Source: Schmidtea polychroa (lineage: Eukaryota). Taken from it: a DNA stretch of 42,447 nucleotides. The stretch covers positions 122,326,001 through 122,368,447 of the forward strand of contig CM097886.1 in assembly GCA_044892525.1 (NCBI GenBank), written 5' to 3'. The position numbers were made by a program, and so were the translations under genes. The notes beneath the pieces are model-generated. The model saw only the letters and a list, made by a program, of their open reading frames with translations. It was not told the origin of the DNA and searched no databases. The stretch's first letter is position 1, and every line of letters begins with the position of its first letter. Positions 1 to 26,043 of this stretch are shown here, piece after piece.

Positions 1-615
1 GAATTACGAGAAGAGAAACGAGAAAACGAGAGATTAGTGAACAAATATATGGAAGACCGGAAAATGATTAAAGTATTAAAGAAAGAATGCAAAGTGCTAG
101 GAAAAGTAAAGAGAGAAGCAGAAGAGAGAAATGAATGGCTGCAGGAACAACGAACACGAGGAAGAAATTGGGAAAGGATTGCAGCGGAATTATGGCAAGA
201 GAGGGCAAGCTTCAAAGCAGAAGAAGTAATCCAAGACTACTGGAAAACAGAGGCGAAAGAACGCCAAACAACTATAAATAAATTAAATCAACAATTGGAA
301 GAAAAACAAAGAGAAAGTGAAAAAATGAAAAAATGGATCCGCAAATACAAAGAAATCGAGAGACAACAACAACAACGAAACCCTCCACAAGAGAACGAAC
401 AAGATTTCCTACAAATCGAGTTAAAAAGAAATCTCGACAAGAAACGAGAAGAAATAAGCAAACTAAAAATGGAGATAAGACACCTAAAAAGGGAAGCCCG
501 TGAAAAGGATCGGCAATTAGAGATGATGTCGGAATTAAGACACCGGGTCATTGAAGCGGAATCTACCCTGATGAGAAATGCCGAAAATAATCCCAAAGGA
601 GAACCATCTAACTAA
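1..615 (+). CDS. 5'-partial coiled-coil protein of unknown function, probably a retroelement accessory ORF
   Basis: The frame is open from base 1 to TAA at 613-615. E/K/R/Q-rich heptad-like sequence throughout (e.g. INKLNQQLEEKQRESEKMKKW, ISKLKMEIRHLKREAREKDRQL). A-rich sense strand, TE-dense context, no recognisable catalytic motif. Confidence 0.6.
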   Translation, partial: ELREEKRENERLVNKYMEDRKMIKVLKKECKVLGKVKREAEERNEWLQEQRTRGRNWERIAAELWQERASFKAEEVIQDYWKTEAKERQTTINKLNQQLEEKQRESEKMKKWIRKYKEIERQQQQRNPPQENEQDFLQIELKRNLDKKREEISKLKMEIRHLKREAREKDRQLEMMSELRHRVIEAESTLMRNAENNPKGEPSN

Positions 616-654: not shown

Positions 655-1266
655 ATGTATATTAGTACAATGCGGTATGGAATCGTGATAACGGTAATGG
701 TATTGATAAATCACCTGATGGAGAAACAACAATTAAACGCTCAACTGACAAGCATACGAGATCACCGCAATCGAAATCAAAAAGCCAAACCAGAACCTTG
801 CCAATGCCAATACCCCAGTACAATAAAAACCAACATCCTCCACAGTATCCAGTCAACTCGGTCATATGTTAATAACGTCAGAAGTCTGTGCAAAAATCAC
901 CCCATATGCCGAATGATGGACCGAAAAATACTCGAACAAGTCCAACACTTCGATCAGTTGGAACAACAAATACAACAAGAAGTGTTCGAAAATCCGGCCG
1001 AGACAACAGAAACACCCTCAAATAACAGCGACACCCACTACCTTCTCTACGTAGTGATCGCAGAAACTATCTTGTTATGCCTCATAACCTTCCTAAAAAT
1101 CCTCGAAGTTAAGAAAAAATGTCAGAGCTCGAAATCCAGAGCCACCGTACAAAACCCAGCCGAAATAACCAATGTTATCCAAACCACAAGCTCACCCAGA
1201 TTAAACCATAAAGAATCTCCTCAACCATCGTTCAATCGCCCAATCTACCATAACACCAGTTCGTAA
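655..1266 (+). CDS. Small predicted membrane protein (hydrophobic N-terminus, Cys-containing luminal part, C-terminal TM helix followed by a basic patch)
   Basis: Intact 203-aa ORF starting 39 nt after the previous stop. N-terminal YGIVITVMVLINHL; TM-like YLLYVVIAETILLCLITFLKIL followed by EVKKK; four Cys in the luminal part; NNS sequon. AATAAA about 150 nt downstream (~1418). Confidence 0.6.
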   Translation: MYISTMRYGIVITVMVLINHLMEKQQLNAQLTSIRDHRNRNQKAKPEPCQCQYPSTIKTNILHSIQSTRSYVNNVRSLCKNHPICRMMDRKILEQVQHFDQLEQQIQQEVFENPAETTETPSNNSDTHYLLYVVIAETILLCLITFLKILEVKKKCQSSKSRATVQNPAEITNVIQTTSSPRLNHKESPQPSFNRPIYHNTSS

Positions 1267-1892
1267 TTGTAGCAGCAAACCCCAACCAGAACCATCAGAG
1301 TGACCAAACAATGCCAGAACTGAACTAAAAACACTATGTTGTGAAAAACTTTGTTGTGTATATAAACCATCACCATAAGTGATGCCTGCTTGGTCTTGAT
1401 TTGACCTATATCTTATTAATAAAATTTTATTGATGTTTATAATTTTGTTAATCACTATGTTATCTTTTTATGAATGTGCTTATTTTTTTCTGAGAGAATA
1501 AGAGTAACTCAAGTATGTAATTGCGGGACGCAATTTTGTCGGGTCCCCAAGTGATTTGTTGGGCTGAGTCGAAGGGTATCGGAGAGATTAGGTTAAGCAT
1601 AACGAAACTAAAATTAAAAATAAAATTAAAATAAACAAATCTACGAAACAAAGTAGAAAGGAAACAAGAAAAATAATAATTAGAAAATAAGAATTAAAAC
1701 AAAAAAATATAAAAACACGAAAAATTGAAATAGGACAATAAAATGACGGAAAATGACGTAAAATGCAGTAAATAATAAGGAAATTAAAGAAAATAAATAA
1801 AAAATACAATAAAAATAAGGAAAATAGGAGGAAATAGCTCAAAAACAAGGAAAACAAATTAAAGTAATAAAAATAAGCGGTACTCCATTCTG

Positions 1893-1980
1893 ATTGGTCC
1901 GCATAAATAGAAAACTAATATATAAGCAGACACTAAAATCATAACAATTACCGTTCATCTAACCACTACATTAGGTAAGT
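1893..1980 (+). promoter_or_regulatory. Pol II-type promoter directly after the A-rich arm: ATTGG (reverse CCAAT), TATATAAG, then a GTAAGT splice donor
   Basis: gATTGGt at ~1892-1898, TATATAAGCAG at ~1917-1929, GTAAGT at 1975-1980. The spacing is typical of an LTR promoter. Confidence 0.45.
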
Positions 1981-4051
1981 GTATTTTAATTAACAATGAC
2001 CGTTCATCTAACCACTACATTAGAAACCAAAATTCACAGCGACAGCCACAGATTCACCGAAATCATTTCAAGGACTATTCTAGGAATCCAGGAAAACTCA
2101 ACCTATTCTAGTATTAACCATTTCTGTTCAGAACTTTTCGATTCAGCCTATTTGAAAATTTGGTAAGGGATTTTTTCATTATTTAGGTTTACCATGCAAC
2201 GATCATGTATATTTATGAATTTATAGTAGTCTAAATTTAACAATAATTTTTCTCTTTTCGTTTGATTTGAAGGTTTTACTTAATTAAATGTTTTAGTAAT
2301 TTGGTAATAAACGTTTTATTAGGAATTAAAGGATTTTTTATTATTTGTTGATTTTATGATATTTAAAAATTTTGGAGAAACGTGGTGTTGAGATACTCCA
2401 TGTCATGGTGTGAGGTGCCTTCGGGAGCTCAGCCGGTGGACATGGGGTCTTTTCAATCACGCAGCTGATTCGGGCCGTAATGTGGGGGCTTCCTCACGGG
2501 TCCGTCGCTGAAGGAGTGACTAAATTCTATGAAAAACTCATACGAGGAAGTAGGGTAGGAGAATGAATCGATAAATAGGAGAAATTTTGATATGTTCGCG
2601 CAGTGATTGAGGGTGTCACACTAGCGTATTATAACAGCGTCTGATCAAGTTAAAAATCTTCTTTATCATCCAGTAGATCTAGGCAGGTCTTTCGTTAACA
2701 AAACCGTCCAACCTTGGTAGTGCTATAGTTGCCATAGTTCTCGAATTCGCTAGAAATTTAATCTTGAAGTTTTCAGCTACCGATTTTTGCGAGATCGCTA
2801 TTCCTATCGGCTATATGTCCTCTCAAGGATAAAATTGTATGAAATCGCGTAATTAAATAGGTTTAAGTAATCATTAAAAATAAAAGCGAATAACTCCAAT
2901 CAGTAAAAATGTATTTCTCTAAAAAATAATTCATTAGAATAATGTTTACCCAGTAAAGCATAAAATGTCCACATCCCGTCGAGTGGAAAATCCAGCATTG
3001 GAATAAGTAATAAATCTCCAATTTGACAGCAGTAGCCGGCATACATTGATAGCGATGGAGGGCCACGAGACGAGCTGGTAAATCATATTTGAGGGATCGT
3101 GAATTAATTCCAATATTGATGATGTAGAAATCCGGTTTTTCCAAAATATCCATGAGAGATAGCAGGCAGCATTTGAGGTAGATACATGGTTCGTCAGTGA
3201 TGTAATATGTCATAAGGGAAAATACATCTGCATGCATACACAGGCATAGCATAGAGCATGAAGACATCAGTCAGCGATTATGACTAAGTAGAAGTAGGTG
3301 AGAGAAAATTTTCATGCGCCATGCGCTTTAGAATAATCACAGAGGCTACTCGCAATATGTAGATTATACAGACTGTTAATCACAGGAAATCCAACCTGAC
3401 GCGTCAGCTGAAACATAATTCACTGAAACATACTACTGACAGTCACCCGATTTTCTCACCGATCAGAAATGATAGATAGCGGCCAGACAGACATTTTGGG
3501 TACACGTGGTTAAATTCATTTAAATATTCAACTTTGTCTTAATCATTATTATTTTCTCACAACTAAACAAGTGCAAATTAATTTAACAAACTTTTACTCA
3601 TCACAACAAATAATTGTAGAGCAATTGATAGAGTCTTATTTAGGTTGAATAATTAATTTAAAGATAAATCGCCTATCCATGCATAAGATCTACACATCCA
3701 AATTATTTGTCTTGGGGTAAATCTATAATTTAATTTAAACTCTCTTTAAATGCGAGGTACTGTTTTCAGGTAAATGGATTTAATTGTAATTTCATCAACC
3801 TGTAATTTCCCTTATCCAGGATAATACCTTACTTTCCTTCGGTAAAATCTTGCATGAATGATCCACTCTCGTATGAATAATGACCCCAAGCGTACAAGAT
3901 CTGTAGGGTAACGAAATCTCTTCAGGCTAATAAACTCGTTTTGTCTGTATGATAATCTATGATCGGTATGGTATGAGTGTGACTAGATGATGATGTCTCA
4001 CATTTGCCTTAGTTTGATTTTATTCGCATTTCCTCTTCATAGCTATTCAAG

Positions 4052-4792
4052 ATGTCTTCAAGTACCAACAACATTCTTAAACCTTGCTTTTCTTGCTCGG
4101 ACAAGAATTCAATTATCAGGGATCTACAAGCGCAAATTGGAAAATACAAAAGGAAGATCGATGAGTTGGAGGGGACATGGTTTAGTCCCACGCAAATGAA
4201 AGAGACCCAAAAGAAATTGTATCGAAGCGAGCACTGTCGTGATGCTCTCATTTCCGAAAGTCGGGCACAGAGGAGCCTGATAAAAGAGCAGTCGGAAGCA
4301 CTGCATAAACTATACATACAAGCGGCGACCACTAGAAAAATAGCGAAGATCCCAATTAACGAAGCCAGCAATCTCTTCCCAGCGCACCATGATACTTCCG
4401 TCAAGTTTTCGTCTCCACTCGCGAAGTCTTGCCATGGGTGTGTAGAGTCCGAGCTCTCTCCTAAAGACCCAGAGATTGTATTCACCGGAACCAGTAAGGT
4501 CCAGCCAAATCTCGCGTCCTCATCAACCATACAAACGATCACCTCCTCAAAGCCTAAGCGTCGACAGCTGTCTCGAGCTGAACGCAAACGGAAACAACGG
4601 GAACGGGCATCTGTCAAGCAGTGTACATCGTCAATCATCGCTCCAGTCAGCAATAGTGATCTGACGGTGGTCGTCCCAACAACCGGGATCTCCGGGCGAG
4701 TCATCTCCGCCGCCGGGGCGACGTGGGAGGAAAACGCCGCCGAGTTCTTTAATCTGGACGAGTTACTCGCCGACTCGGAGTGGGAGAAATGA
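4052..4792 (+). CDS. Uncharacterised 'TWFSP' coiled-coil/basic protein, intact copy (246 aa)
   Basis: Intact ATG-to-TGA ORF with higher GC than its flanks. KRKIDELEGTWFSPTQMKE motif, basic SKPKRRQLSRAERKRKQRER segment, acidic/aromatic C-terminus. Homologous to the ORFs at 12362-13024 and 20067-20507. AATAAA at 4928-4933. Confidence 0.75.
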   Translation: MSSSTNNILKPCFSCSDKNSIIRDLQAQIGKYKRKIDELEGTWFSPTQMKETQKKLYRSEHCRDALISESRAQRSLIKEQSEALHKLYIQAATTRKIAKIPINEASNLFPAHHDTSVKFSSPLAKSCHGCVESELSPKDPEIVFTGTSKVQPNLASSSTIQTITSSKPKRRQLSRAERKRKQRERASVKQCTSSIIAPVSNSDLTVVVPTTGISGRVISAAGATWEENAAEFFNLDELLADSEWEK

Positions 4793-4952
4793 GGATTTCC
4801 CCGGAAAATGGCCTCCTTCTCCGTAGAGGATTGAACTTCTTCTGTTGTCGTTTTCTACCTTGGTGTTATTCAGTTCGTGTAAAATTCCTTGTATAAATTC
4901 TCTAGGTGTTTATATAGTAAATTTAATAATAAAAATTTTTCGTTTATGTATG

Positions 4953-5563
4953 TGTTATCTTGTGTGTTGAACTTAGAGAATAATATGAACTTGCAAATGG
5001 CACTGAGAGTTGCAGAGAATAAGGAGTATTGGTCAATTGGTAATTCCAGCTAGAAATCTTGCGATGGGCGACAAAAGAAAATGACGTAAGTCCTTCTATC
5101 GGCAGTCAGGGTTAGGAAGTCGAGGCCTCAGTAGGGAGTAGTCCGAAGGAGATGGCTCACCTGCCTACTGGCGTCTCGCCGGCATAGCACAGTTCCAACG
5201 TGAAGCGATTCACGGGTGCTATGTTGGAGGGTAGATTATGTACGGGTCCTGCTCGGCAATGACCAGAATCAAGACGAGCGTAATCGATATGGGGCATTCA
5301 TCCTCTGGACTGAAAGCGGTAATGAAGGGGGTCATCCGGGTAGTCACCCGCCAACAGAAACAGTATTTTAAAAATATCATGGATATTAATGAATAAGGGA
5401 GTAAATAAAAATATAGATTATTACTCAATTGTATTAAACTGAATTTAGATTTAACACGTTCACCCCGGCGCGGATCACCGGTGGCCCGCACTAACCTGTC
5501 CCATCGGGCGGCGTGTACCACCGGTGGGACGTATTTGATTGTGTTGTTAGACGGTACGTAACA
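4953..5563. mobile_element. LTR-like segment (family 2; TGTTATC...TACGTAACA) nested in copy 1
   Basis: TGTTA/TAACA inverted termini. The right end gttgttagacggtacgtaaca resembles gttgttaaggttacgtaaca at 21675-21694. No matching TSD (tatg/ttaa), so the boundaries are tentative. Confidence 0.45.
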
Positions 5564-5619
5564 TTAAATATTTAGATCTTTAACACTGACTGCCGAAACA
5601 GAAGATAGTGCGCAATTTT

Positions 5620-6152: not shown

Positions 6153-7014
6153 AATTGCTTCAACAATTGTTGTGATATAGTTTGGGTCTATGTTGATAGT
6201 GTGGTAATATTAATTAAATTGTTATTATTATTGTTTTATTATAGTTGTGGTAAGTTTGCTGGAGAGTTTAATAGAGCCCAACCGAGTTTCCTTTAAAAAG
6301 AACTGTCTCAGGATAGCTGGGATGTTTGTTTGTAGGTTATTTTATACAAGTAACAACTAAAATAAATACGAAATGGGTAAATTACAACAAAAAATAATAT
6401 TAAACTTTCAAAACGTTTATTTAACAATAAATCAAAGACCTTTATGAAATTCACGGGAGTCCGTGGATCAGAAGGAATTGTTATTGTTGCTTTGTACTTG
6501 GATATTCGGCATGAATTTCGACGTTTTTCATTATTTCCTATAGGTATTGTAGTGTTATCCTACGATGTTATATACCTAGAAGAACCCGAAAGAGTTACCG
6601 TTTAAAAAAATATATTGTAGCGGGACAATCGGGGTGCATTTTTGTATTGTTCTGTATAACAAAAAAAGGGAGAATGATAAAACTTATATGATATAATATA
6701 ATTATTAATAACTACAATTATTATTATTAAATATTAAAGTCAAATGATTAATCAACCTTGATGATTTTCAGAATAAAATTGGAATTTACAGCTGATTCTT
6801 CTTTTTTATTGTTGACGTTTGTTAAGGTATTCCAAATCCTCGAGGATATTTCTAATATAATGTTTTAACAGTTGATGGAATTCTAATATAATGTTTTAAC
6901 AGTTGATTGAATTCTCGAAAGACTTCGAATTTCAAGATTGAATGGGATATAATTAATTTTATTCTTTCAGTTAATTTTTATGCTTGATTATTTTATTTTT
7001 TTTAAACTATTTCC

Positions 7015-8386: not shown

Positions 8387-9851
8387 TGTTGGGTCGCTTT
8401 GTGGTGTGTTATATTTAAATGTAGTAGGGGTATTTATGGATTTCGAATCGACTCCTTCCATAACGCCTTCATGACTATTGTCTTTAAACCATCTGTGTAC
8501 CCATGGAGACGACCATGTTGGTGCTGTACACAATGGCTAAAAATCCATGAACAGATGAGTTCTACTTATAAAACTACTTATTATATTTTCATTTTCGGGT
8601 TCTGGACTGCCGATTGGATGTCTTATGTCATTGTTAATTAGCTATTTATTTCTTAGATTATTGTTGTTGGTTCATGTAATTATGGTCCTCATTATGAGAT
8701 GTTTTCTAATGCTATCGTCCAAAATTTTACACGGGGATCCACCTTTATTTCCCAGTTAATAAATGTTGCAATATTCAAATTATTCTTCAAAAAATATTTC
8801 AGCAGGAATCTGCCTATATTTCTAATCCTGACCTATCTGATCTCATAACTACTCGAGGATTCTAGAATATTATCCCAAAAACTAAACCTATCTACTTGCA
8901 TTGGTCTTACTTCCTATATTTCTTACTCATTACAGTAAATAAAATGGTATCAGCGATCGACTCGGCGGAGAAGCCTCCGAACTGTACCGAATCATCTGAG
9001 TGTCTTGCACCTACGTCTATCTACCCATAAGATCAGAAGCCTGATCTTTGATTGATGGTGAGATCCATCTCCACCGTAACTATTATTCAAATCATAAAAA
9101 TTAAAAACGAACAATAAAAAGAAATTAACTAAAACTGAATTAAATACAAAGATTTATAAACTTAGAACATTACATTACCAAATCCAATTCAAGCTTACCG
9201 CAATGGCATAAACCGAAAAACTGAGAGCTACAGTTGAATTACATACAGTTGAATTACGTTATACACACGTATATGAGTGTGTGCAATTTTTTAATTTAAT
9301 TTAATTAATCAATTTATTTAATTTTTCTTAATTTTAATTATTTAATTTTATTATTTTATCCATAGAAATGTTTAGTTTCCATTCTTAAATTTATTTCTTT
9401 ATTTTATTTCATTCAATTTTTTAAATAAATTTTTCTGTTCCTTCTCTTAAAGTATGCACACATTGCCATAGCTCCTTCGTGTGTAAATACGAGCCATAAC
9501 ATCCCCAAATAGTTCGATTATGGTCCTTCGTATATAAATACGACCAATAATCCTATTAAAATTTCTTCATTTAATTAATTATTTTATTATTAATTATTAT
9601 TTTATTTATTATTATTTAATTTTCTAGTATGCAGATTTTCAGAATGCATTATTTTTCTCATAACTGTGTTGATTGCAACTTCTTGCGTTTCGTGATTTTA
9701 TTATACGTGTTTTATTTATCCTCCATGTGTTGTGTACTTTATTTTGTATTATTGGTGTATAATCATAAATTTTAATTCAATTTTGTGCGGTTTTTATGCT
9801 GTATTTTTGGCTCATTAAAAGAAACTCTCAATCTTTGGTTCTAGTTCAACA
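8387..9851 (-). mobile_element. Family-1 solo-LTR-like element (copy 2, 1465 bp, no ORF)
   Basis: Left end TGTTGGGTCGC. The block 8387-8630 aligns by eye with 11730-11965. Right end TTCTAGTTCAACA resembles TTCTAGCCCAACA at 26039, preceded by a T-rich arm. Flanks TTAC/ATAC (3 of 4 match). Confidence 0.65.
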
Positions 9852-12361
9852 ATACAAAACTAAATTTTTATTTACATTAACTTAGAAAACAAAATTAAAC
9901 TATAACAATTATTTAAATGGGCTTATCGTTGAGTCTCAAAAAATATGTTAAAAGTGTTAGTAGTATAACGCATTTTGGTATCTGTCAGGGTGGCTTTATA
10001 TATCCAAATCAGATTTTCTCTCGAATGGTCAGGTAGGAGCATAATTCCTTCTCTCTCATTGGTTAATACTATAGTTTAATTTTACTATTTTACCTGGTTT
10101 CAACCTGCTCAGGCCAACGAACACAAGAAAATATTCTGCTTAGAAAAGTGACGGGATGAACTGATCACAGAGAAACTTTTATCGGAGAGTAATTGTTTAT
10201 TTTTATTAATCTTAACGTTTATTTATTTTTCAAAAAGTGATCTTAAATGATTGAAGACAACTAGAAAAATTTTCTCTTTCTCTAAGTTGCTTAACTTGTA
10301 TTTTGGAAAAACAACTTTGCGAAAAATGTAAATTGTCATTTTAAACACAAGATAAACAAAAGAAACAATAAATTTGATTAAAAAGTGAAAAAAAAACATT
10401 ATTTCCATAAGAAGGTAAAGAAGTAACCTCAAATTTGTGTTATTTATCAAGTGAAAATTTGCATGTTTTAAGTTAGTTTTATTCGAATAATTGTTAATAA
10501 TAATATAATCAAGTTTATTTTTTATTAGGATGGATACATTTTTGTTAAATAAATCAGTTAAAGCACCAAATTCAGTGACCAAAAAAATCGAAATGAAAAG
10601 AAAATATGCTGAAGACTTCATCGAATTTGGATTCATTGCGATAGAGAAAAAGGGACAGGAGTTTCCCTTTTGTCTGGTGTATAATGAGACATTGTCAAAT
10701 GCGTCAATGATTCCCAACAAATTGATTAGACACAAGGATACTAAGCATCCAGAGCTCTTTTAAGAATCAAAACAATAATTTGATATTCGGCGAGCACAAA
10801 GCGAAAAACAAGCGTTTAAGATGAAAATTTTCTACAAGATTCCTGAAAAGGCTCAGATTGCAAGCTTCCAAGTAACATATCTACTCGTGAAAAAAAGAAA
10901 ACCACACACAGAAGCTGAAAGTATTATTGCTGCTGCAGTTTCGATTATTTTTAGCACAATCCTGGGATGTGAAGCTGCTGAGAAAGTGAAGAATGTACCA
11001 TTGTCAGCAAACACAATTTCAAGAAGGATTCAAGATCTATCAAAGGACATTGAATCTCAAATCATCGAGAATTTTCAGAGCTCGGAGGAGGAATTTTCCA
11101 AATTGTGGTCGCTGCAAGCTGACGAAACCACCGACATCAGCGGAAAAGCACAGCTCATTACATTCATCATATTCGTTCACGGTACAGAAGTAATGAACCA
11201 ATATTTGTTTTGCCAGGAGTTGATTGAAACGACCACAGGAAGAGATATTTTCAACTTTATCGATTACAATGTGAAGAACTATCAACTTCAACAGCAGAAA
11301 TGCGTCGGAGCTTGTACAGATGACGCTCCTCGTCTTGTTAGCCGTTCAGTCACCATTCAGAAGCTTTAGTTTCAAAATCAATTCCTTCGCAGCTCCTTAT
11401 TGTCATTAATCAAGTCGTCTCGATTGTCAACATTATCAAGTCAAAGCCTCTGAACTCCAGAATTTTCGGCCTTTTTTGCGATGCGATGGATTCGATTTCA
11501 AAACTCTACTCTACAACACAGAAGCTCGATGGCTGTCCAAAGGAAAAGTTCTTGAGCGTGTTGTTTACCTCAAAACTGAAATAATTTCATTTCTTGAAGG
11601 TGAGGATATCACATTCGATTTTGATTTTCGAGACAGTGACTGGTTGTTGAAGGTATCATTTCTTATTGATCTTTTCAACAGACTCAATGTTCTTAATAAG
11701 AGTCTTCAGGGATTAGCTGAAAATATTATTGTTGGGCGCTTAAGGTTGTGTCCAACTTTTGGATGTCAGGGGTAGTTGTAGGTGCACAGGTAGACTCCTT
11801 CCTAAACGCCAATGATGATTGTTGTCTTTACAACACCTGTGTACCCATGGCAAGGGCCATCTTGGTGCTGTGCACAATGGCTGGGAATTCATGAGCAGGT
11901 CCTTTGATAAAACTACTCATAATATTCTAAATTCGGGTTCAGGAATGCCGATAGAAGGGCTTACATCTGTATCGACTACATATAACAAGCTACACTCGAA
12001 ACCTCTGGTCCAGTGATCTCTTTCGATCTCTTTCGATCTCTTTCTCATTGAAACTCACATCACCGTGTCACCATGATTTTACCTCTCGGAAGACAGGTCA
12101 CCGAACAATATCATTTTATTTTTAAGGAATAGAAATTGGTAAATTACATAGGACATTGAGATTACATCAAGACATCATAAACATAAAGAGGGAATTTATC
12201 ACTCATAAGTTCAAAGTAAATTACGATCAAATGTGTCGAAGCGTGTCAGAACACTGAATGAGTCTATGTGGTTGGGGATTTTCATTGCTTGACATCGAAC
12301 TGAGGTATTGAGATATTACCGAGTTCCCTCACACGCCTATTTCGAGTTGGTTGGCTAAAAC

Positions 12362-13024
12362 TCACTGCCCTGGGCTTCCAGCATTAGTGTCGACATCAAT
12401 CTCCAGTTGCAGATCTATCACCCACGGGGTGTTTGTTGCCGGTATGATCCTGTAAGGAGGTGGATCTGTTGCTGCCCGAGCTGGATATGGTCTGGGCTTG
12501 GTGGATAGCGGGGCTGCAAATAGTGCGGCTTCGACAGTAGCTAGTTCGTCCCTTTTCCGCTTGGATCGTTCCGCGCGTGTGAGACGCTTTCGTTTCGGTC
12601 GGACAACCGGGATAGAAGTCGATGACAAGGCTGTAGGAGCTGGTGGGGGAGTGACAGGTACTAGTGCCTTAGCTGGCATCGTACTCGTCTCCACATATAC
12701 GACATTCGGCTGCGTGGTTAAGGCAGGAAGACTTGGTCAGGCCAATAATGAATCGGGAAAATGTTGTTCCTGTCGGTAATCGGATATTCGGAGACACGCT
12801 TTTGTAATTCATGTTCGGAGTAAATTTATGTAGCGTTTCCGACTGGGCTTTGATGGTGAGTCGTGGCTTTGATTTTCTTCTAGCAAACTATCTCGGCAAT
12901 GTTCCAAGCGTAAGATTTTTCTATTGGCTTCCTTCATCTGTGGCGGGGCGAACCACGTCCCTTCCATCAGATCAATGCGTTTCTTTAGGTTTCCGTTTTC
13001 GGTGCGTAGCTGTCTCGTCTCCAT
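12362..13024 (-). pseudogene. Frameshifted 'TWFSP' family ORF
   Basis: KKRIDLMEGTWFAPPQMKE...LEHCRDSLLEE. Alternative frames give RLTIKAQSETLHK and YSEHELQKRVSEYPITDRNNIFPIHY, matching the 4052 ORF (RSLIKEQSEALHKLY...PINEASNLFPAH). Then RPKRKRLTRAERSKRKR. Confidence 0.8.
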
Positions 13025-13078
13025 GGTCTTAGGCCAGTTTTAGGGAGGTTTGACTCGGACATATCTATAAAAGGAAAG

Positions 13079-13091
13079 ATTTATAGCTGAA
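13079..13091 (-). promoter_or_regulatory. TATA motif TTCAGCTATAAAT upstream of the TWFSP ORF
   Basis: 13-mer identical to 20580-20592, 55 nt upstream of the ATG at 13024. Confidence 0.6.
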
Positions 13092-15105
13092 TTCGTCACA
13101 TAACAGATACTAGGTCGTCGACCAAAGTATACCAGATGGTCTATTAGGATTTATTTATACATCGGAGTCGTTACGATAAAGATTGAGGGTCGCCGAAGAC
13201 ATCTATCGTCGGTCAAGTATGACAGTTAGATTTTTAGAGAAAAATATATACTCTGTTCATGAAGTCATTTCAAAAAATATATACTTGCCCCATCCCCCTT
13301 GATCGTTTAACCTTGTGCATTTGATAGTCATTATCTAGTTTCAATTTCTGACCTCTCAATGCCCTATTCTCGTAGCTAAATCACTCTATTTAAACGAAGG
13401 TTCCTTATGGGTTAAATGGATAATTTGATCGATGGATGACTGAAATATTTTATCCCACATTTTTACAAGTTTTAATCAATTTTACCACATCGATGTCAAC
13501 GCACTGGCTACTTCAAATTATTCTAGTGGTTTATTATACCCCGCAAGCAAAACATTCGCATTTCCCATCATAAATAATTCATTCTATATGAAATTAATAT
13601 CACGCTAGTGGGGTTTGAAATGTTTATATTTGTTATACAATCAATGCCTATTCATGCTTCCTCATTTCTGTTCCACGACAATCTACGCGTAATGATGTTC
13701 CGTAGTATCAATACTGATGGATTTCAGTCAGAAATGTTTACATTATGATATGTGAATTGCGTTTCCGGTCTCGCTAATGCCATGCTAAAATTTACTGTTG
13801 TTTACATTTTCCTATTGAATCGAAGTGCAAAGATTACGATAGACGAGGGCGATATTTCCGGCCTTGCATACGATTTACTGATTATAATGAACCACGACAC
13901 CCTGTGCCGTTTAGTTTTACTTTTGAAGGTTTTTAGTTTACTTTGATTTCTAATTGTTTTCTAAACTCATTCTATTTTATCTGTCTTCGTTTTCAATTTA
14001 ATTACTACTTTTACTCTACTTTATTTTAATTATTTTAAATTAATTGCTATCCTTAATCTATTTTATTTATAATTGTTTTAAATTATTATTATTTATTAAT
14101 ATTTTTTATTACCTTGTTGTTTTTAATTTACTTTTCTTAGTTGGTGTCCTCATCTTAAAAAAGAACCAAGGTGCTATGTTTAACTAAGAGAAAAAAAACT
14201 GATTATTGGAACTTTTACTGTTCCTGGCCCAACATTATGGCGGTAACATTAAAGCTTCTTTCATTTAAAGAAAAACTTCACTTGTTCTTCAGAAAAATCA
14301 AGGAAAAAAGCTTTGATCTTCTCCATCGTTGATAAATTCGCCAATAAGGATGAAATTTCTGAGTTTGCTCTCCAAACCATGGAAATGCTTTTAAAAGCAC
14401 TCGGCAATTATTTCCCCTCCTTAAACGTCAACCTTTATCAGTGGATTTTGAATCCATTTGGAACAAACGAATGTCTTGAATTTTCTACGAAAGAAGAAAA
14501 ACAACTTATTGGTTTAAAAAACGACATGGTCAATAAAATTAATTTTGAACAAAAAGGACTGGAAGAATTTTGGATTTCTCTAGGCAAGGATTATCCCGAG
14601 TTGAGCATCAAAGCGTTAAAATTATTAATTCCGTTTTCTACTTATATGAACTTGGATTTTCGGCACTGGTTGAAATCAAATCAAAGAAACGTGAAAGATT
14701 GCGGACAGTTGATGAAGAAATCCGAGTTAGTTTGTCGTCGCTCTTGCCCGGAACATCAAGCACATCCATCACATTGACGTTTGAGAAGGAACAAATAAAT
14801 AATAATGTGTTAATTTTTGTTTCTCAAACCCGCAAGTTAAACAGCATTAAACTTTCATAAAATTTGATGCAAAATCTTATATCGAAAATATTTGTCAGGG
14901 GTGTCGCGAATTTTTTTTAAGTGAATTGGCTGTTGCTATTGAAAGAAGTTTGGAGAACACTGAGCTTTTTTATTTTATTTAAATCTATTAAATTATTCCA
15001 AATTTATCACCAGAATTAAATTATTATTATTATCAGTCATCAAAATCAAATATTTCATTATAACTGGTCACAAACTCACTCTACATTTCACTGTCAGTTG
15101 GTTAT

Positions 15106-16378
15106 TTATGATTGCTCGTGAATCAATTGGTACAGTGAGTACTTGGTATCCAGCATTTCTGTCATATACTGGCTTCGCCCATGCCGAATGATTAGCGCTG
15201 TCAGCATATTTCTCACTGTTTTACTCCGTAAAATATTTCCGTTTTTAGTATCGACCGCATCAATTGTCACTGCATAACCAAATGGCCATCCCATTTTATC
15301 ATTAAATTCTCCATATAACAAATGAAAAAACATAAATTTCACTTGACTTATTAATTATGCTCAAGCACATTTTGTAACCGGGTCGCCCTGAGTAAAATGG
15401 CTCGCTATAGATCTGATAATCATATTTATGTGATAAATTTATTATTTTACATTCAAAAAATCCAAAATTTTCAATTTCCAAATTTCCTTTAATTTCCGAA
15501 ATTTTGCTCAATTCATCCTGAACATAAATTCCACCTTCAAATATTTCAATTATAAAATCAATTTCACTTTTATATTCTCTTTCTGCTCATAATTTTGTTA
15601 TAATTCATCAATTTGCAGCCTCATCTACTCGGCATTTGGAAAATGATATCGAATCAATATTAAAATAAAAATCAAACTTCATTTATTTATTCCACATTTG
15701 CTTTATTCTCAGCTCTCAATGATCAATTATCATTCTTCTCTGCCATCATTTCTTCATTCAATACCTCTATTTCTTTACTGTTGTCCATTTCGCACATTTT
15801 CTGCTACCATCGCAAATTTCAAAATATTTCAATAAATCAATTTACTTGTTGTATAGCTAATTGTAACTTCATTGATTCCATTTCCTTTCGTAAATTATTG
15901 ATGAGATCAACCATCAGGTTGTTATGGTAGCAATGGTCTTCATTAAGATGATCTTTCATTTCGTCAATCATCATTTTATTCATTCCACACCCAATTCCAA
16001 AAAATGGACAGCTAATAGCCTTTTTGGTACATTTTCTCATGTGATATTCTATCATGCCCAATTTATCTTTGAATTGGCAATTATACAATGGACATTTTAC
16101 TACTGTTTCCGAAATTCTAAAATTAGCTGGATTATCTTCACAAATGTCTTCTTTCAAATTTAAAGTTTGCACGTGACAAAATTTTGCTGCTCCTGGACAG
16201 AATTTATCGATCCCATCAAATAATCTTTGATGTAATCGGAACAAAAGCGACAACCACAAGGTGCGTTACAGGCGTTTTTTATTAAACATTTGCAAATTCT
16301 GCATATTAAATCATTACTGATTTCATTGTCAACTTCAAATTTATTCTCATTCATAATTTTCCAAATACTTGTAAACAT
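15106..16378 (-). pseudogene. TRAF-like gene with frameshifts and stops (RING, TRAF Zn finger, coiled coil, MATH)
   Basis: CRICKCLIKNACNAPCGCRFC RING; KCPLYNC...HMRKC...SCPFFGIGC...HLNEDH Zn finger; MATH fragments SEPFYSGRPGYKMCL and LLYGEFNDKMGWPF lie in different frames. Could be a pseudogene or assembly error. Confidence 0.85.
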
Positions 16379-19692: not shown

Positions 19693-20066
19693 TGGTGGGT
19701 TACTGGTAGTTAATTAATTATGCTCTTATGCTGTTACCAGCGTAACCCAGGATACAACCTTATTTTCCTCTTGGTACCCGTTGAGCAATCAACGTTGGTA
19801 CTGTACCAAGGGGTTGAGTACTCGCAAAAAGTGAGCGCGTCAAGCACTGTAATTGTCGAGCACTCTATGGGTTCACGGACGCCGATAGAAGGCACGTGTC
19901 CGATTTATTTCGGTCTCTCATCGAGATCGTTTTTCCAAGCGCCTTCCCGCCAACCATCCTGTTTCAGACAACCGCAAAGTTCAATCACATACTCATTAGA
20001 TAACAAGAATCATTTATTAAGCCACCACTATATTACAAAGATTGTTTACGCACTCTCGAACGTCTC

Positions 20067-20507
20067 TCAGGATCGTGGATTGGCTTCAGTCTCCTTCAAT
20101 TTCTCCTGTTCGGCTAACCAGGGCCTTTTCAATTTGTCGCGGGTATTCCGCCCTAGCCGTTTGCGTTTCGGCTTGCTTGCCTGGGCTGGTGGGTATATCT
20201 GGGCCAACTCCACGGAAAGTGGACGAATCTGCTCGCAAAGGGTGTCCTGGACGACTCTTTCGTTCAATTTACTCTCGAGCGAGCGCACTTGTAGCTTCAG
20301 CGCTCGGATCTCGAGTTGATCTTGCTCCGCCTGGGTCTGGAGTTGCGAGATGCGCGTGGTTTGTTTCTTCATCTCAGCCGGACTGAACCACGTACTTTCG
20401 AGTTCCCGGCATTTGATCTTGAACTTCTCGACCCGACTTCGGAGGTCTTCGGCTTGCTGCTGGGCCTGTTCACGGTCCTTTCGTAGGTTTTCGAGGAATG
20501 TGTACAC
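20067..20507 (-). CDS. Divergent 'TWFSP' family ORF (start uncertain)
   Basis: KIKCRELESTWFSPAEMKK and SKPKRKRLGRNTRDKLKR. The ORF track starts at GTG; the nearest ATG (20547) is 40 nt upstream and out of frame, so the 5' end may be frameshifted. AATAAA at 20018-20013. Confidence 0.7.
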   Translation of the reverse strand: MYTFLENLRKDREQAQQQAEDLRSRVEKFKIKCRELESTWFSPAEMKKQTTRISQLQTQAEQDQLEIRALKLQVRSLESKLNERVVQDTLCEQIRPLSVELAQIYPPAQASKPKRKRLGRNTRDKLKRPWLAEQEKLKETEANPRS

Positions 20508-20579
20508 TGAATGGAAACAATAATAAAATTCCCTCGCTCGTTGCCATGCGCGTAAAGGTGATTCACTTAGTGGTGTAAA

Positions 20580-20592
20580 ATTTATAGCTGAA
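20580..20592 (-). promoter_or_regulatory. TATA motif TTCAGCTATAAAT upstream of the TWFSP ORF
   Basis: Identical to 13079-13091. Confidence 0.6.
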
Positions 20593-20816
20593 AGGTGAGT
20601 GAGGTCCCCCCGATCCTGGAGACACCCATAAAATATAACCGCAGAGAAATTAATTTGCTATATGAGGAAGACACATGAACAAATATAATATTAATAAGTT
20701 TAATAAAGTAACATCCTACAAATTGTCGTATCAATTATTAAAGGAGTCAAACACAATTACAACAACATTATGTCCGATTGATCATATAGTTCATTCAAGT
20801 CATCACAGTCGTGGGA

Positions 20817-21185
20817 TTAGGCAGGGTTCTTCCGGGGCCTTCCCCGTTTCCTCGGAGGTGCCTCGGCCTCTTCTAATTCTTCCAGGGACACCCCTTCTCT
20901 TTCGGCTCTGATTTGTAGATCGATCTTCCTGAGCCGGGTCTGGGCAGCTTCCACATCCCAGGCCGCCTGATCTCGGGCCTCTTGCAAACGGTCATTCTCC
21001 GGTTCCACCTTCACCCATGCCTGGGCATCGGGCTCTGGGCCGGTCCGGATAATCCGATTGGAACAGTCCAGGTCCCGCCCCTGATACCATCGATGAATAT
21101 GGTGCCAGATGTACCGCGTGCGAAGGCGGGTGATTGTCCATTGCTCGTCCTCTTCGCTGCTGGGGTTATCGTTTGGTGGTGCCAT
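20817..21185 (-). CDS. 122-aa protein with a short coiled coil and a C-terminal AT-hook
   Basis: Intact ATG-to-stop, GC-rich ORF. LQEARDQAAWDVEAAQTRLRKIDLQIRAE, then PRKRGRPRK (canonical R-G-R-P AT-hook core). Confidence 0.7.
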   Translation of the reverse strand: MAPPNDNPSSEEDEQWTITRLRTRYIWHHIHRWYQGRDLDCSNRIIRTGPEPDAQAWVKVEPENDRLQEARDQAAWDVEAAQTRLRKIDLQIRAEREGVSLEELEEAEAPPRKRGRPRKNPA

Positions 21186-21294
21186 GCCTGGAATGTATAC
21201 GTTAATACCCGTTTAACTCACGTCACTTATCAATGGTCGTCATAATAAAATACATCGAATTAACTCACATATCAATGACTAAGTTTATTACGAT

Positions 21295-21694
21295 TGTTAT
21301 AACTACTTTTATCAAAGAAAAATAAGTTTTGTTTATAGGTTTTACCAATTTAATTTTTAACTACTTAAAATTAAATAACTTTTATCAAAAAAAAAATAAA
21401 GTTTGTGTATAGGTTTTACTAATTTAATTTTTAACTACTTAAAATTAAATAACTTTTATCAAAAAAAAAATAAAGTTTGTGTATAGGTTTTACCAATTTA
21501 ATTTTTAACTACTTAAAATTAACTAACCTTTATCCAAAGAAAATAAGTTTTGTTTATAAGTTTTACCAATTTAATTTTACCTACTTAAAATTAAATAACT
21601 TTTATAAAAAAAAATAACACTTACAATTATTATCATCACCCTGATTTAAGGCCTTTTGTTTGATCACGGTAATCGTTGTTAAGGTTACGTAACA
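21295..21694 (-). mobile_element. Family-2 LTR (TGTTACGTAACC...TATAACA on the minus strand), probably a 3' LTR
   Basis: On the minus strand it is preceded by the purine-rich AGAAATGTGGGAGT (PPT-like, 21695-21708). Terminus resembles 5543-5563. Partner LTR and TSD not found. Confidence 0.45.
21305..21620. repeat. Tandem repeat, ~73-74 bp unit, ~4.3 copies
   Basis: Unit ttttatcaaa...ataggttttaccaatttaatttttaactacttaaaattaaataac recurs at about 21307, 21380, 21454, 21528 and 21600. Confidence 0.9.
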
Positions 21695-22278
21695 ACTCCC
21701 ACATTTCTTAATTTTAGTCAGCACGGATATAATAAAGGGAAGAAATTCAGGTATCCAATATTCATATCTTAAGATTTTTCATCGCAACTTAGTGATATCA
21801 GTAGCCGACCCCAAATCTCGATCAGTTACTATTGACTGATAATATGCTATGGTCCCTCGCATGGACGAAGAGAGCTTGGCGATGCCAAGGAGAAAAGTTG
21901 GCGATTGCCTCGATAATTGAGTCGATATTAACTTATAAAGAACTCAGTGATCTCGATTAGTAACCTTTGTTTGGAATTTTTTGTTTCGCTTGGATGCTAA
22001 TATAACGTGAATCTTCGATTTTGGACAAAGTAAAACTTTCTAGTAAGGAAAAACTTATTTTAACGAAGATGCTTCGATTTCTTTTAATTTTTGAAATTTC
22101 GGGAACTTCCCAGATCGGGATCGGATCGATGAATAAGGTTAGTATGGATGATGATGATGATAACAATAGTAATTATAGTAAGAGTAATAGCAATGTCAAT
22201 TATGATAATAGTAATAAATAATAATAATGTTTATCCTGACAATACCAATGGTAATAGTAATCACACTAGAATAACGGT

Positions 22279-22428
22279 AATCATGATAATATTAGTAATG
22301 ATGATAATAACTTTGATGATAATAATAGTGTTAACAATAGCAGTAGGATAGTTAATCATGATAATATTGGTAATGATGATAATAACTTTGATGGCAATAA
22401 TAGCATTAATAATAATAGTAGGATAGTT
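22279..22428 (+). repeat. 75-bp tandem duplication within an AAT/GAT-rich low-complexity tract (~22145-22430)
   Basis: Two units, each aatcatgataatatt[a/g]gtaatgatgataataactttgatg...agtaggatagtt. Confidence 0.85.
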
Positions 22429-25400
22429 TCCCATTTTTCCATTCGAGATTCCCCTTTCCTAATTGTAGAAATTCTACGCTTATGATTTAGGGAGTTACCT
22501 TTACAATCTACAGATTTCGGTCTAGAATTCAGCGTTTATGTTTTACCATTTATGAACTTCTACCTTACAGTGTCTAATTAAATATATCTCGTATATAGTT
22601 TAATACTTTATGATTTGCTATTCTGTATTTTGTTATTTTATAATCGCTGCTTCAAGTGTTGTAATTTATAAATTGGTGTTAGCTGAACTTGTAATTTTCG
22701 GATTCCTAATTCGTAGCGTTTTATAAATTTATAATTTATCAGTTCTCGTTTCATGAGTTAATTTTGTCGATTTTAGAAATTTATCCTCTACGATCTACAA
22801 ATTTCCTTTCACTATGATAATTGTGCACTCTTGGCTCGGCAATTGGTATGGTAAATGCGGGACTATCGTCTAGATTCTAGTCCATGTTGATTGGACGTCT
22901 AGCTGCAGTGCGAGGTCAGAGTTACCAGTCGGTGTGCTTGCAACTTCTATGCCCCGCAGAGTGAGAGCTTTTTGGTTTACCACTCATACGTTCTAGGTAA
23001 CCTACAATCCTGGTAAGATAACTGGAATAATTAATCGATTTCTCGTTCCTCTAATTCCAGAATGCGGAATGTGCAACTACGTCACTGGTGACTCACAAAT
23101 TTGTAGATTATATCAATTACCTGATTGGTCTACCGATTGGCTAGCATGACTGCATGTTACTAAAAATAGATTTCATGCGTGTTGTATCGATCGTTTGATT
23201 CCTCCGTAAGTCTAATTTTGTATAATTCTTAAGCCATAATTTATGATGATTAAACAGGTTCGTCGTAATGCTGTCGGAAGCCTCTTTGCGGATAATTTTA
23301 ATTCTGAAGATTTTGGACTATCGGAACTATTGAGTTCCTAATCAGGCGATACCCGATATAACGTTTGCCCTGCCAACTGCTTTGTCGAATGCTCCATGGA
23401 TTTATCAAACCCACTCGCTTCAAGTTATTCGTTGGATTTCGAAAACGATCTCACCGATACAATTGGACGTAAAACAGGATGACATCGCAATCGCTCAACT
23501 CCAATCTCAGATATCCATATTGAACGTTGCATGTGATTCCAATGACAATTATGATTTCCCATAAATTTTTTTATGTAATAAAGTATTTGTATGGTAAACT
23601 GTTTTTGTTTTTATTCAAGCTTAGCTGCACAAAATTATTCGAGTTTACTTGGTAGTGTGACCTACACTTTGGCTTTAGGGTATCTTTATTAATCGTTTTG
23701 CACCAGGATTTTTCATAAGTGGGACGGAATTTCCGTTTATTCTAGAAGCTGGACAAAATTAAGATTTATAGTTCGGAGGTCTTTAGAGGACTTATAGAGC
23801 AAACAAAACTTAGATTATCATCGGAAATTTTTAATCATTATTCTAATCGAGAGTCAAATAAAATCAGGTGTCTGGGTTATACGTTTCTAAAGCACAAGCA
23901 TCAATCATAGACTCAGAGTTTATACTTTGGAAATTCCAGAAAACATAACCTAAATATCTCGAGATTATGAACTCAGTTACCCTATCAAGCTAACATTATG
24001 CTTTAAGTATTCAGTCAAATTATAGTTTATAATCAGTTACCTATTTAAGGAAATGCCTAATACTACCCTATAATTTAGGTATGCATAAATTATCGATGGG
24101 GGAATAGAAGTTAGCATTATACCTTTCAACACTCAAAAATTATATTTTATATGAAAACCCTAATTTCTAATTTAAATAGCTAAATATGTAAATAATTTAT
24201 GAAAGGCTATTATATTTTTCTACCTTATATTTTAAAACTAGATTCCGTAATCTATTAAAGTTACACTTTATCAATTGGTACTATTACATAATATACTCTA
24301 TATTTTCAACGGGCATGCAAAGCCATATTTCTACTTCAACATTAATAAAATATACTATAACCCAAAATTATATCCCAAGATCTTCACACATTATATTTTA
24401 AATAGGCATAAGGTTATATTTCATAGTAAAAATTTATAAATTATTTCTGAATGCAACATAAAAGTATATAATTAATAATTATAAATTATACTTCAAGCAA
24501 AGTTATTTTAAAATTTCTAAACATTTAACATTTTTAGATTACATTTTCGGACTCATTATTAAGACATATTTCATAAATAAAGGGTAATACGTATTTATAG
24601 GTTGTAGCTTCGACTACAAATTTGAGCCATAGATTTAAAGTTAATTAAGTACTTTCATTTGATTACTTACGTTTGTCGAACTTCTTTACGAGGATTTCTA
24701 CATTTACTCTAAAAATTAAAGAAATTTTAAAATTATATATCTCAATGCAGTTCGACAAACGTATAGGCATAATCGAGTTTTCCCATGATGATCAACCGAC
24801 TACATGTGTTCAATTTGGGTCTGAGTTCTACTCAATTATGACCTTAGTGTAACCCTATTGTCTACGATTTTTAATGTTGAGATTAAATATGTTTGCTTGT
24901 ACTCGGGAAGAATGCTTGCTTACACGGCCCCACTGTGACCGCTACGACAAGCCCTATTGTAATGTTGAGTCGAAACATCACTGTCGACCGATAAATAAAT
25001 ATATGGAGCCATAGCGGAGGGGTTTTATCGACACAACTCCATGGTAGAACCATGAAGTGGCCGACCTCCGATGACCGAACAAAAAAAAATATATACAGGA
25101 TATTGCATGTCTGCATGTTTCAAAAAAATTTAACATCAAATGCAGGACTGAATAGAGACGCACTGAGACGCCGCTGATCAGTCGTATTTTAAAAAAAATT
25201 TTAATAAAAAAAAATTTGGTCTTATGGATATTAAAATTAGTTTACATTAAAATGATTACATTAACCATAGGTGACATCAAAAAAAAATTTCTACTTACTA
25301 TTAGTTTTCGGAAAAACTTTAACAAAATATTGGCATAAACAAAAAAATGATTGATTGTGACTGAAACGTGTCAGTATATATACCTATTTTGTACACGTGT

Positions 25401-26043
25401 ATGTATTGATGCATTAAAACAAACTCGAATTCTTTTTATTCCAGAATTTTCTATTTTGCGATTTTGATATTTTTAATGGCAATTTTTGTGCCATAATTTT
25501 TGTTTTTATTTTTATATTTTTATTTTTTAATTATTTTTCATTAATTTTACGTCCATGATGGATTTGGAACGGTTCCAGAACATTCTGTTTTACTTTTAAT
25601 TTAGTTTTTATTTTAACTGATGTTTTTTATGAATTTCTTTTTGAGATTTTTTTATTTTTAATACTAATTTATTTATTTTCCTTAACTTTTGTTGTTCTAG
25701 ATGACTTTTGTGATGGTCATCGCCATTTTATAGAATGTTCTGGGTTTTTCTGGAATGTTTTACTGTTTTTATCGTCTTTTAAGTTATTCGAGTTTGCTTT
25801 TGGTAATTCTATGTTTATTTGGTTATTTTTGAGTTAGATTTTTGCATCACTTCTTGCTTTTGTATAATTTTATTTAATTTCTTTGTTTATGTTTTTGTTG
25901 CTTTCTCCTTTAGTTAATATTGTTTATTTGGTGTAGGTTTTAATATTTAACTCTACTTGGTGCTTTTTTACTTGCTGTGTACCTACACGTTTCGGTCATA
26001 ATTAGAAGTTTGGGTCTAGAAATCAGTTCTAGCCCAACACAAC

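Follow-up and report, generated by a model that had tools for sequence, protein, structure and literature searches.

The window analyzed here, a 42,447-nt stretch of the Schmidtea polychroa genome (GenBank assembly GCA_044892525.1, contig CM097886.1; G000:C2:122326001-122368447), contains four copies of long terminal repeats (LTRs) of giant Burro-type Ty3/gypsy elements, and these LTRs carry a gene of their own. Judged from sequence, the LTR borders, the orientation of the gene, a conserved promoter module, a splice acceptor, one fossil splice junction, a conserved AATAAA and purifying selection on the open reading frame (ORF) are all in place. We favor, as the probable though by no means certain reading, a layout in which the gene lies behind a CCAAT-TATA promoter, is reached from a short leader by splicing and precedes a poly(A) signal, so that the gene falls within a repeat (R) region of 3-5 kb.

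LTR copies and the orientation of the ORF

The following copies were recognized in the window, and all genome-wide searches reported below were made in the 781-Mb genome of the animal.

1557..5356, plus strand: copy 1, 3′ LTR of 3800 bp, belonging to the 26.5-kb element A
8387..8640, minus strand: copy 2, same superfamily, recognized only as a 3′ LTR end
11730..14234, minus strand: copy 3, solo LTR of 2505 bp with TG..CA ends and a 4-bp target duplication
19693..26039, minus strand: copy 4, solo LTR of 6347 bp with a 4-bp target duplication, sitting in an integrase gene fragment

The initial annotation had taken these repeats for LTRs, and the TG..CA ends, the target duplications, gag-pol and a primer-binding site bear this out. 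Duplications of 4 bp flank elements A and B, copies 3 and 4, and the element with spliced LTRs described below. Element A starts upstream of the window (G000:C2:122304895), and its two LTRs differ at 5 positions; the protein encoded in the copy 1 LTR has at least 150 matches in the genome, many of them paired 20-32 kb apart.

Elements A and B, both of the copy 1 family, encode gag, an env-like fusion domain, protease, reverse transcriptase (RT), RNase H and ankyrin on the same strand as the LTR ORF, and element C, of the copy 4 family (family 4), encodes RT-RNase H-integrase on that strand. The domain order was protease-RT-RNase H-integrase in element B and RT-RNase H-integrase in element C; the env-like fusion domain (PF24664) precedes the protease in elements A and B, and Pfam searches identified ankyrin and MATH/TRAF cargo. 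Elements A and B, at 26.5 and 29.8 kb, fall slightly below the giant size of Burro, and element C measures ~37 kb. Burro/GYPSM1 of planarians is a giant gypsy-like element with an internal region of up to 25 kb and a total length above 30 kb, an env-like fusion domain between gag and protease, and ankyrin, MATH/TRAF, BIR and BCL2-like motifs (PMC6431247). The present elements resemble it in size (26-37 kb), in a gag with CCHC knuckles, in the env-like domain between gag and protease, in RT-RNase H-integrase, in ankyrin and in TRAF/MATH and RING accessory ORFs (PMC6431247). Unlike in Burro, TRAF is here a separate ORF downstream of pol, and BIR and BCL2-like motifs gave no Pfam hit at E 0.01 in the subset of frames scanned; the LTR gene, its intron, the promoter and the R border have no mention in section 7 of PMC6431247.

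An antisense arrangement like that of HBZ had been kept in play by the initial annotation. In full-length elements A, B and C, however, the ORF is sense to gag-pol, and both gag-pol and the primer site lie on the ORF strand in families 1 and 4. The primer site stands 7 nt behind the conserved end of the 5′ LTR and is complementary to the 3′ end of the host tRNA-Pro(TGG). We give virtually no credence to an ORF antisense to the element or to a gene in the opposite-strand frame: copy 1 does have a 231-aa opposite-strand ORF, and by eye the conserved end of the LTR reads as a good opposite-strand donor in many copies, but the frame opposite the LTR ORF contains stops in 20 of the 21 copies examined. 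No purine run suggestive of a polypurine tract was seen by eye directly before the 3′ LTR in any of 4 elements (window 1500-1556; L066; the L138 locus); in elements A and B that place is taken by a short G/C-rich inverted repeat. A tandem array of tRNA-Pro(TGG) with a 475-bp period at G000:C1:130.90-130.95 Mb (L208-L211; 2164 genome matches to the pattern) fits the primer site.

A likely promoter and leader far upstream of the ORF

The initial annotation had placed the ORF between a promoter and a poly(A) signal. That order held, with a different promoter and an intervening intron; the distance from this likely promoter to the ORF downstream ranges from 2.1 kb in copy 1 to 4.9 kb in copy 4. 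A second TATA after the A-rich arm had been mentioned as a caveat, and it is exactly there that the likely promoter lies.

1890..1926, plus strand: likely promoter of copy 1, with a reversed CCAAT box (1890-1897) and a TATA box (1919-1926), behind the A-rich arm
1950..1974, plus strand: predicted leader exon 1, from TATA+31 up to the donor
1975..2023, plus strand: mini-intron of 49 nt, GT..AG, its last 25 nt (1999-2023) repeating exon 1 exactly, with a G in front
2024..2162, plus strand: predicted exon 2, with 2135-2148 complementary to LTR nt 6-18; donor 2 at 2163
25298..25382, minus strand: family-4 promoter and leader exon, with TATA at 25382 and a leader ending in A before the donor at 25298
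13079..13091, minus strand: 13-mer flagged in the initial annotation; no conserved TATA box, located shortly before the predicted splice acceptor

The module of CCAAT, TATA and donor, situated 360-660 nt into the LTR, gave 360 matches in a genome pattern search and 0 in the control; the copy 1 donor at 1975 is 56 nt behind the TATA at 1919. A second pattern covering the relatives of copy 3, in which the module lies 570-610 nt into the LTR, returned 33 further matches (control 0), and family 4 has a conserved TATA block of its own (657 motif matches, control 0). Copy 3 itself can be aligned to its relatives at LTR nt 1-305 only and then again towards the ORF, and the module is absent from it.

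The TATA originally proposed as the promoter belongs to a 13-mer common to copies 3 and 4, which does occur in the window, at two places and no more, both on the minus strand (13091 and 20592). Chance would supply 1.13 such 13-mers between two LTRs of this size and 0.0016 between two 150-nt windows (figures obtained post hoc), and the identity, which includes TATAAAT, is what speaks for an unspliced mRNA driven from directly ahead of the ORF. A TATA box directs initiation ~30 nt downstream of it, and in copy 3 the distance from the first T of the TATA to the start codon at 13062 is 23 nt; the start site would therefore fall within the ORF. The offset of the 13-mer from the homologous coding part is, moreover, unequal in the two copies. 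Neither of the two nearest copy 3 relatives (L100, L004) has a TATA at this place, nor does copy 1, and of 20 family-4 loci 12 have the motif (7 with ATA, 5 with ATG) and 8 lack it. What is conserved there is the splice acceptor, and we regard a promoter at the 13-mer as highly improbable. The TATA of copy 4 was also considered as a lost start codon, an idea that was dropped since ATA is as frequent as ATG and is present in more distant members.

Behind the first donor, 24 of 29 distinct loci carry an exact repeat of the preceding 22-31 nt, here termed the leader copy. Its last bases are an AG, 44-53 nt downstream of the donor, and in 16 of the 24 loci it begins at TATA+29..31. In a second set the leader copy was found in 16 of 27 loci, with 12 of these starting at +28..30, compared with 2 of 111 control donor-like sites. 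Leaders vary among loci (mean identity 57%), so each copy tracks its own leader. The base ahead of the leader copy is G in 8/24 and 6/16 loci, against 8% G in the spacer; an extra G is expected where reverse transcriptase copies the cap. We infer that the reverse-transcribed RNA starts at about TATA+30, 2.1 kb upstream of the ORF, which would place the ORF outside U3, the LTR part upstream of the start. A location of the ORF in U3 with a promoter near the LTR end was dropped after the promoter module and the leader copy had been found.

Loci from which the mini-intron has been exactly removed exist in genomic DNA. A 49-nt skip in contigs of runs X1 and X2 was rejected as evidence of splicing, as the same skip is present in genomic DNA. 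Seven loci (L178, L181, L182, L186, L200, L262 and L266) show the leader duplicate followed by GTAA, where removal of the mini-intron would expose a new donor in a manner resembling recursive splicing. A scan of 50 loci for recombination breakpoints at the leader pointed to two apparent recombinants, both no more than suggestive: in L185 the flanks of one subfamily enclose the leader of another, and L149 agrees with one subfamily in promoter and leader but differs from it further downstream. In the long LTR intron, window 2423-2436 holds a primer-site-like word within a block kept in the copy 1 clade, and a shorter similar word occurs near the LTR end.

Predicted splice acceptors and a fossil junction

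4035..4051, plus strand: predicted acceptors of copy 1, a pyrimidine tract with AG at 4041-4042 and 4050-4051
4052..4792, plus strand: intact LTR ORF of copy 1, 246 aa, with CxxC, two long helices, an arginine-rich helix and an acidic-hydrophobic tail
13065..13074, minus strand: predicted acceptor of copy 3, a pyrimidine tract and AG, 2 nt before the start codon
12389..13062, minus strand: LTR ORF remnant of copy 3, start codon at 13062, matching an intact relative in three frames
20067..20506, minus strand: coiled-coil coding exon of family 4, its first bases TG, behind the invariant acceptor at 20507, which leaves the start codon split by the intron
20817..21185, minus strand: second LTR ORF of family 4, 122 aa, AG 2 nt before ATG, no Pfam hit
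655..1266, plus strand: last internal accessory ORF of element A, 203 aa, AG directly before ATG

In 38 of 42 loci the ATG is preceded by an AG at a distance of at most 11 nt, and in 33 at a distance of at most 3 nt; four loci have none (the loci being related, not independent). The same pyrimidine-AG feature stands ahead of the ATG in six accessory ORFs of element A, the LTR ORF among them. In family 4 the acceptor AG|TG is invariant in 20/20 loci, and the coding exon has no conserved start codon of its own; the last base of the leader is A in 14 of the 20 distinct loci and G in 2, the donor being uncalled in 4 (by eye, three more have A). The 122-aa ORF of this family ends in what we take to be an AT-hook-like motif. 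One family-4 solo LTR of 2564 bp (L302, G000:C1:4407288-4409852) has a 4-kb internal deletion whose ends are off the splice sites.

The ORF of copy 3 is a broken frame: it starts at 13062 and matches its intact relative in three frames. Copy 3 also has no promoter module, and the flagged stretch therefore reads as a relic that has lost its promoter and its frame.

Evidence of splicing came from element G000:C1:78918511-78953687, whose two 1561-bp LTRs are 99.8% identical and which has a target duplication and a primer site. In both LTRs the leader is joined exactly from donor to acceptor, 4.8 kb is gone, and an in-frame start codon stands at the junction; the ORF has an internal stop. As far as genomic DNA can tell, this fossil junction shows cis-splicing from the leader of the element to the LTR ORF. 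Spliced-leader trans-splicing is not needed for the LTR ORF, the junction using the element's own leader. A genome search with a stricter family-4 junction probe returned no match. Two genome patterns joining the donor-like site near the LTR end to the ORF returned none in one case and a single point mutant in the other. None of the runs recorded as RNA contained this stretch; two sets of contigs from runs presumed to be RNA, which can reveal neither transcript starts nor ends, showed no leader-to-ORF joint and were not used as evidence.

The LTR-encoded protein

Across 61 pairs with synonymous divergence (dS) of 0.1-1.5, drawn from 21 near-full-length copies, the median ratio of nonsynonymous to synonymous divergence (dN/dS) of the LTR ORF was 0.12, and 0.07 in its N-terminal half, which shows that the ORF has been under purifying selection. 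The predicted structure (mean predicted local distance difference test score of 63) comprises helices at residues 13-40 and 46-98 and a basic helix at 175-191, with disorder elsewhere; the last of these is the conserved arginine-rich motif (numbering of copy 1).

A fold search gave no match at E 0.001, atlas hits stayed below 0.9, proteins of 135-431 aa included no homologue, and a profile search gave one repetitive low-complexity hit only. No homology to Rev, Rex, Rec or Rem was found in Pfam, PDB, fold or profile searches. An arginine-rich helix together with an acidic-hydrophobic tail would suit an RNA- or DNA-binding regulator. Since the ORF mRNA lacks an intron which the genomic RNA has to retain, our first guess, made by analogy, is a Rev/Rex-like role, and our second a Tat-like transactivator; of all the steps proposed here, this is the weakest.

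Likely poly(A) signals and the probable extent of R

12115..12120, minus strand: pA1 of copy 3, AATAAA after the ORF
4928..4933, plus strand: pA1 of copy 1, AATAAA after the ORF, followed by a T/GT-rich stretch
20013..20018, minus strand: pA1 of copy 4, AATAAA after the ORF
2306..2311, plus strand: pA0 of copy 1, a second AATAAA 143 nt behind donor 2, kept in the copy 1 clade and not in family 4

The AATAAA reported after the ORF in copies 1, 3 and 4 was confirmed at 4928 (plus), 12120 and 20018 (both minus), 429, 391 and 326 nt before the respective LTR ends, as were those of copy 2 at 8650 and 8749 (minus), 263 and 362 nt before the end at 8387. To the earlier caveat that AATAAA is frequent in AT-rich DNA, the conservation of pA1 provides an answer. 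Canonical AATAAA or ATTAAA occurs 120-165 nt before the conserved end block in 13 of 20 clusters (2.7 expected), and one of five hexamers reported as enriched at planarian cleavage sites (PMC5068929) in 19 of 20 (3.0 expected); the stretch after pA1 is 53% T. The AATAAA first noticed is thus, on the strength of these alignments, a real conserved signal. It is the only one found in all families and is therefore favored as the end of the genomic RNA. The ORF would then lie in R, as had been proposed; this part of the proposal is likely, and a location in U5, the LTR part downstream of R, could still arise through pA0 in the copy 1 clade.

The alternative keeps promoter and splice and lets the genomic RNA end at pA0. 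R would then measure ~380 nt, and the ORF would sit in a U5 of 3 kb, with expression from 5′ and solo LTRs only. U1 at the donor would silence the 5′ pA0, much as in foamy viruses, and pairing between the LTR start and exon 2 would free the 3′ pA0. Foamy viruses are described as silencing the 5′ poly(A) site through U1 bound at a donor upstream of the signal, while a different fold frees the 3′ site, a precedent for structure-dependent use (PMC3694450). In the copy 1 clade, AATAAA is depleted from the TATA to +240 and enriched at +320..+440. In 37 of 44 loci, LTR nt 6-18 are able to base-pair with a motif that lies 10-43 nt before donor 2; of the 13 pairs, 4 have changed on both sides. The duplex stops ~10 nt or more short of the donor, however, which leaves occlusion unsupported, and it could equally join RNA ends; a shared hairpin or fold hiding pA0 also found no support. 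In family 4, neither pA0 nor the LTR-start pairing was found in the first 900 nt behind the TATA, and no poly(A) enrichment was seen over TATA+20..+920; in the relatives of copy 3 the pA0 signal is irregular. We consider this alternative serious but rather unlikely.

Several observations weigh against the layout that we prefer, with the gene inside a 3-5 kb R. pA0 itself, 119-164 nt behind donor 2, is kept in 17 of 21 clusters of the copy 1 clade (3.0 expected) and would give a short R with the ORF in U5, and the scan of family 4 for poly(A) signals behind its TATA reached +920, short of the middle 4 kb of the LTR. The leader copy is missing from 5 of 29 loci in the first set, from 11 of 27 in the second and from all of family 4. 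The fossil junction represents one event, confined to those two LTRs, and taken alone would also result had the intron been spliced from the 3′ copy; a genome search for an exon 2-ORF junction in the copy 1 clade gave 5 matches, none a junction by eye. Start, splice and poly(A) sites all come from DNA and none from raw RNA, the counts overstate independence as the loci are related, the LTR protein has no recognizable homologue (no Pfam family above cut-off, none in PDB), and the orientation of the copy 3 family is known by homology only, through the ORF and the end block. No full-length element of copy 3's own family was found.

A run of 21 A behind window 5263 in a contig of run X6 was considered as the end of R and rejected as likely internal priming, relatives having an A-rich stretch there; poly(A) hexamers are not enriched before 5263 (1/20). 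Searches for processed copies with a poly(A) tail at 5263 or pA1 gave no match with one pattern and 8 with another, none of them LTR-related.

The conserved LTR end block

5086..5224, plus strand: end block of copy 1, with donor-like GTAAGT at 5086 and a hairpin at 5182-5224
11838..11964, minus strand: end block of copy 3, with donor-like GTAAG at 11964 and a covarying hairpin with internal loop at 11838-11876

The last 270 nt of the LTR contain a donor-like GTAAG and several stems. Over 11 sequences, the end-block hairpin reaches 94% pairing (26-62% for slid controls), and 8 of its 12 pairs have changed on both sides; the structure was drawn from the same 11 sequences on which it was scored. 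Family 4 has no GTAAG in this block. Under the preferred model the end block would be U5.

A different assignment would make promoter, intron, ORF and poly(A) signal a passenger gene in U3, with the genomic RNA arising from a TATA-less promoter ~320 nt before the LTR end; the gene would then hold a position comparable to that of sag in mouse mammary tumor virus or of nef. An initiator-like TCAGTT is found ~52 nt before the donor-like GTAAG in the copy 1 clade, the end block is strongly conserved and structured, and R would have a normal length. Yet a leader copy at TATA+30 with an extra G needs a reverse-transcribed RNA from the upstream promoter, and the initiator-like word is not kept in other families, where the place resembles a small hairpin; GTAAG is absent from family 4. 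We regard this assignment as quite improbable.

Proposed expression and replication

In the preferred model, transcription would start ~30 nt behind the TATA box. From a 5′ or solo LTR, the RNA would be spliced and cleaved behind the ORF to give a short mRNA; alternatively, the long intron would be kept and read-through to the primer-binding site would give genomic RNA and the other accessory mRNAs. This division into a short accessory mRNA and a read-through genomic RNA, first put forward in the initial annotation, is retained in our best model. The packaged RNA would begin at TATA+30, lose the mini-intron and be copied to the cap. Minus-strand DNA of ~3.4 kb or more, reaching from the tRNA-Pro primer to the cap, would land on the leader copy in the 3′ LTR. 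pA1 would also end the genomic RNA, placing the gene inside an R of 3-5 kb, and the LTR protein would likely regulate the choice between splicing and read-through, or the promoter.

Other features of the window and of related loci

Between copies 3 and 4, window 16770-17891 (minus strand) contains an intronless 373-aa TRAF-like gene with a MATH domain, beside which a second TRAF-like stretch, apparently broken by eye, lies at ~15900-16300 (minus strand); the elements also have a TRAF ORF. Copy 3 interrupts a broken transposase (window 10550-11729 and 14235-14800) that gave no Pfam hit and resembles the hAT/Buster type. A piggyBac-type transposase fragment (PF13843) lies in the flank of copy 1 (window 5793-6095, minus strand), and the family-4 LTR intron holds tandem repeats of 74 and 75 bp (window 21305-21617 and 22278-22428).

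Upstream of the window (G000:C2:122304895-122310101; L036, L037), two duplicated stretches come after the 5′ LTR of element A: first 1171 bp copied from the 3′ flank (window 5357-6527), then, ahead of the primer site, the final 237 bp of the LTR once more. This arrangement may be a gene-conversion scar or an assembly error. At G000:C2:132.99-133.12 Mb (L016-L020, L070-L074), a 29-kb tandem duplication of at least 5 units contains nested LTR fragments and no full-length elements sharing LTRs.

Discussion

In the textbook arrangement, an LTR has a long promoter part, a short R and a short U5, and any LTR gene lies in U3. The present LTRs have a short promoter part, and their conserved spliced gene is located downstream of the probable start site, in R or U5. 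The sag gene of mouse mammary tumor virus and the nef gene of human immunodeficiency virus (HIV) have ORFs that lie within U3 or overlap it. Both are situated upstream of the main start site, are reached by leader splicing and are expressed from the 3′ LTR. The present ORF is likewise inside the LTR and leader-spliced, but differs from sag and nef in lying 2.1-4.9 kb downstream of the likely start site, a site read from DNA rather than RNA.

Functional parallels would be Rex with its response element (RxRE) in human T-lymphotropic virus 1 (HTLV-1) and Rev with its response element (RRE), or Tat, in HIV-1, which also combine a small spliced arginine-rich regulator, structured LTR RNA and an intron retained in genomic RNA. 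Unlike these, the LTR protein shows no sequence or fold likeness to Rex, Rev or Tat, whose genes lie outside the LTR, and its role is proposed by analogy. [quoted passage not shown]

Retroviral R regions span 15-250 nt (PMC12789967) and hold no gene, whereas R would here be either ~380 nt or 3-5 kb long, with introns and an ORF. With the R of foamy viruses (PMC3694450, PMC12789967), the elements share a donor within the LTR upstream of the poly(A) signal; both LTRs carry both, so that their use must differ. The element type is already known, and a spliced LTR gene behind the start site, in R or U5, was not found in literature searches on Burro, LTR-encoded ORFs, introns in R or cap copying at strand transfer, as far as search listings and passages of PMC8532177 and PMC11410931 go; an earlier description in Grohme et al. 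2018 is possible.

In its strongest form, which we hold to be somewhat less than evenly probable, our reading is that an R of 3-5 kb, ten to twenty times any retroviral R, holds an intron-containing regulatory gene, that the minus-strand product runs at least 3.4 kb to the cap, and that each promoter-bearing solo LTR is self-sufficient, its protein feeding back on the splicing or export of genomic RNA. The fossil junction and the leader copy yield exact candidate positions for copy 1: the start at ~1950, donors at 1975 and 2163, the acceptor at 4042 or 4051, and signals at 2306 and 4928. Whether the gene belongs to R or U5, reverse transcription must span several kilobases in its first step. 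Both LTRs carry a poly(A) signal at which the element has to decide between a short mRNA and read-through. For the host, the consequence would be that hundreds of solo LTRs could express the LTR protein.

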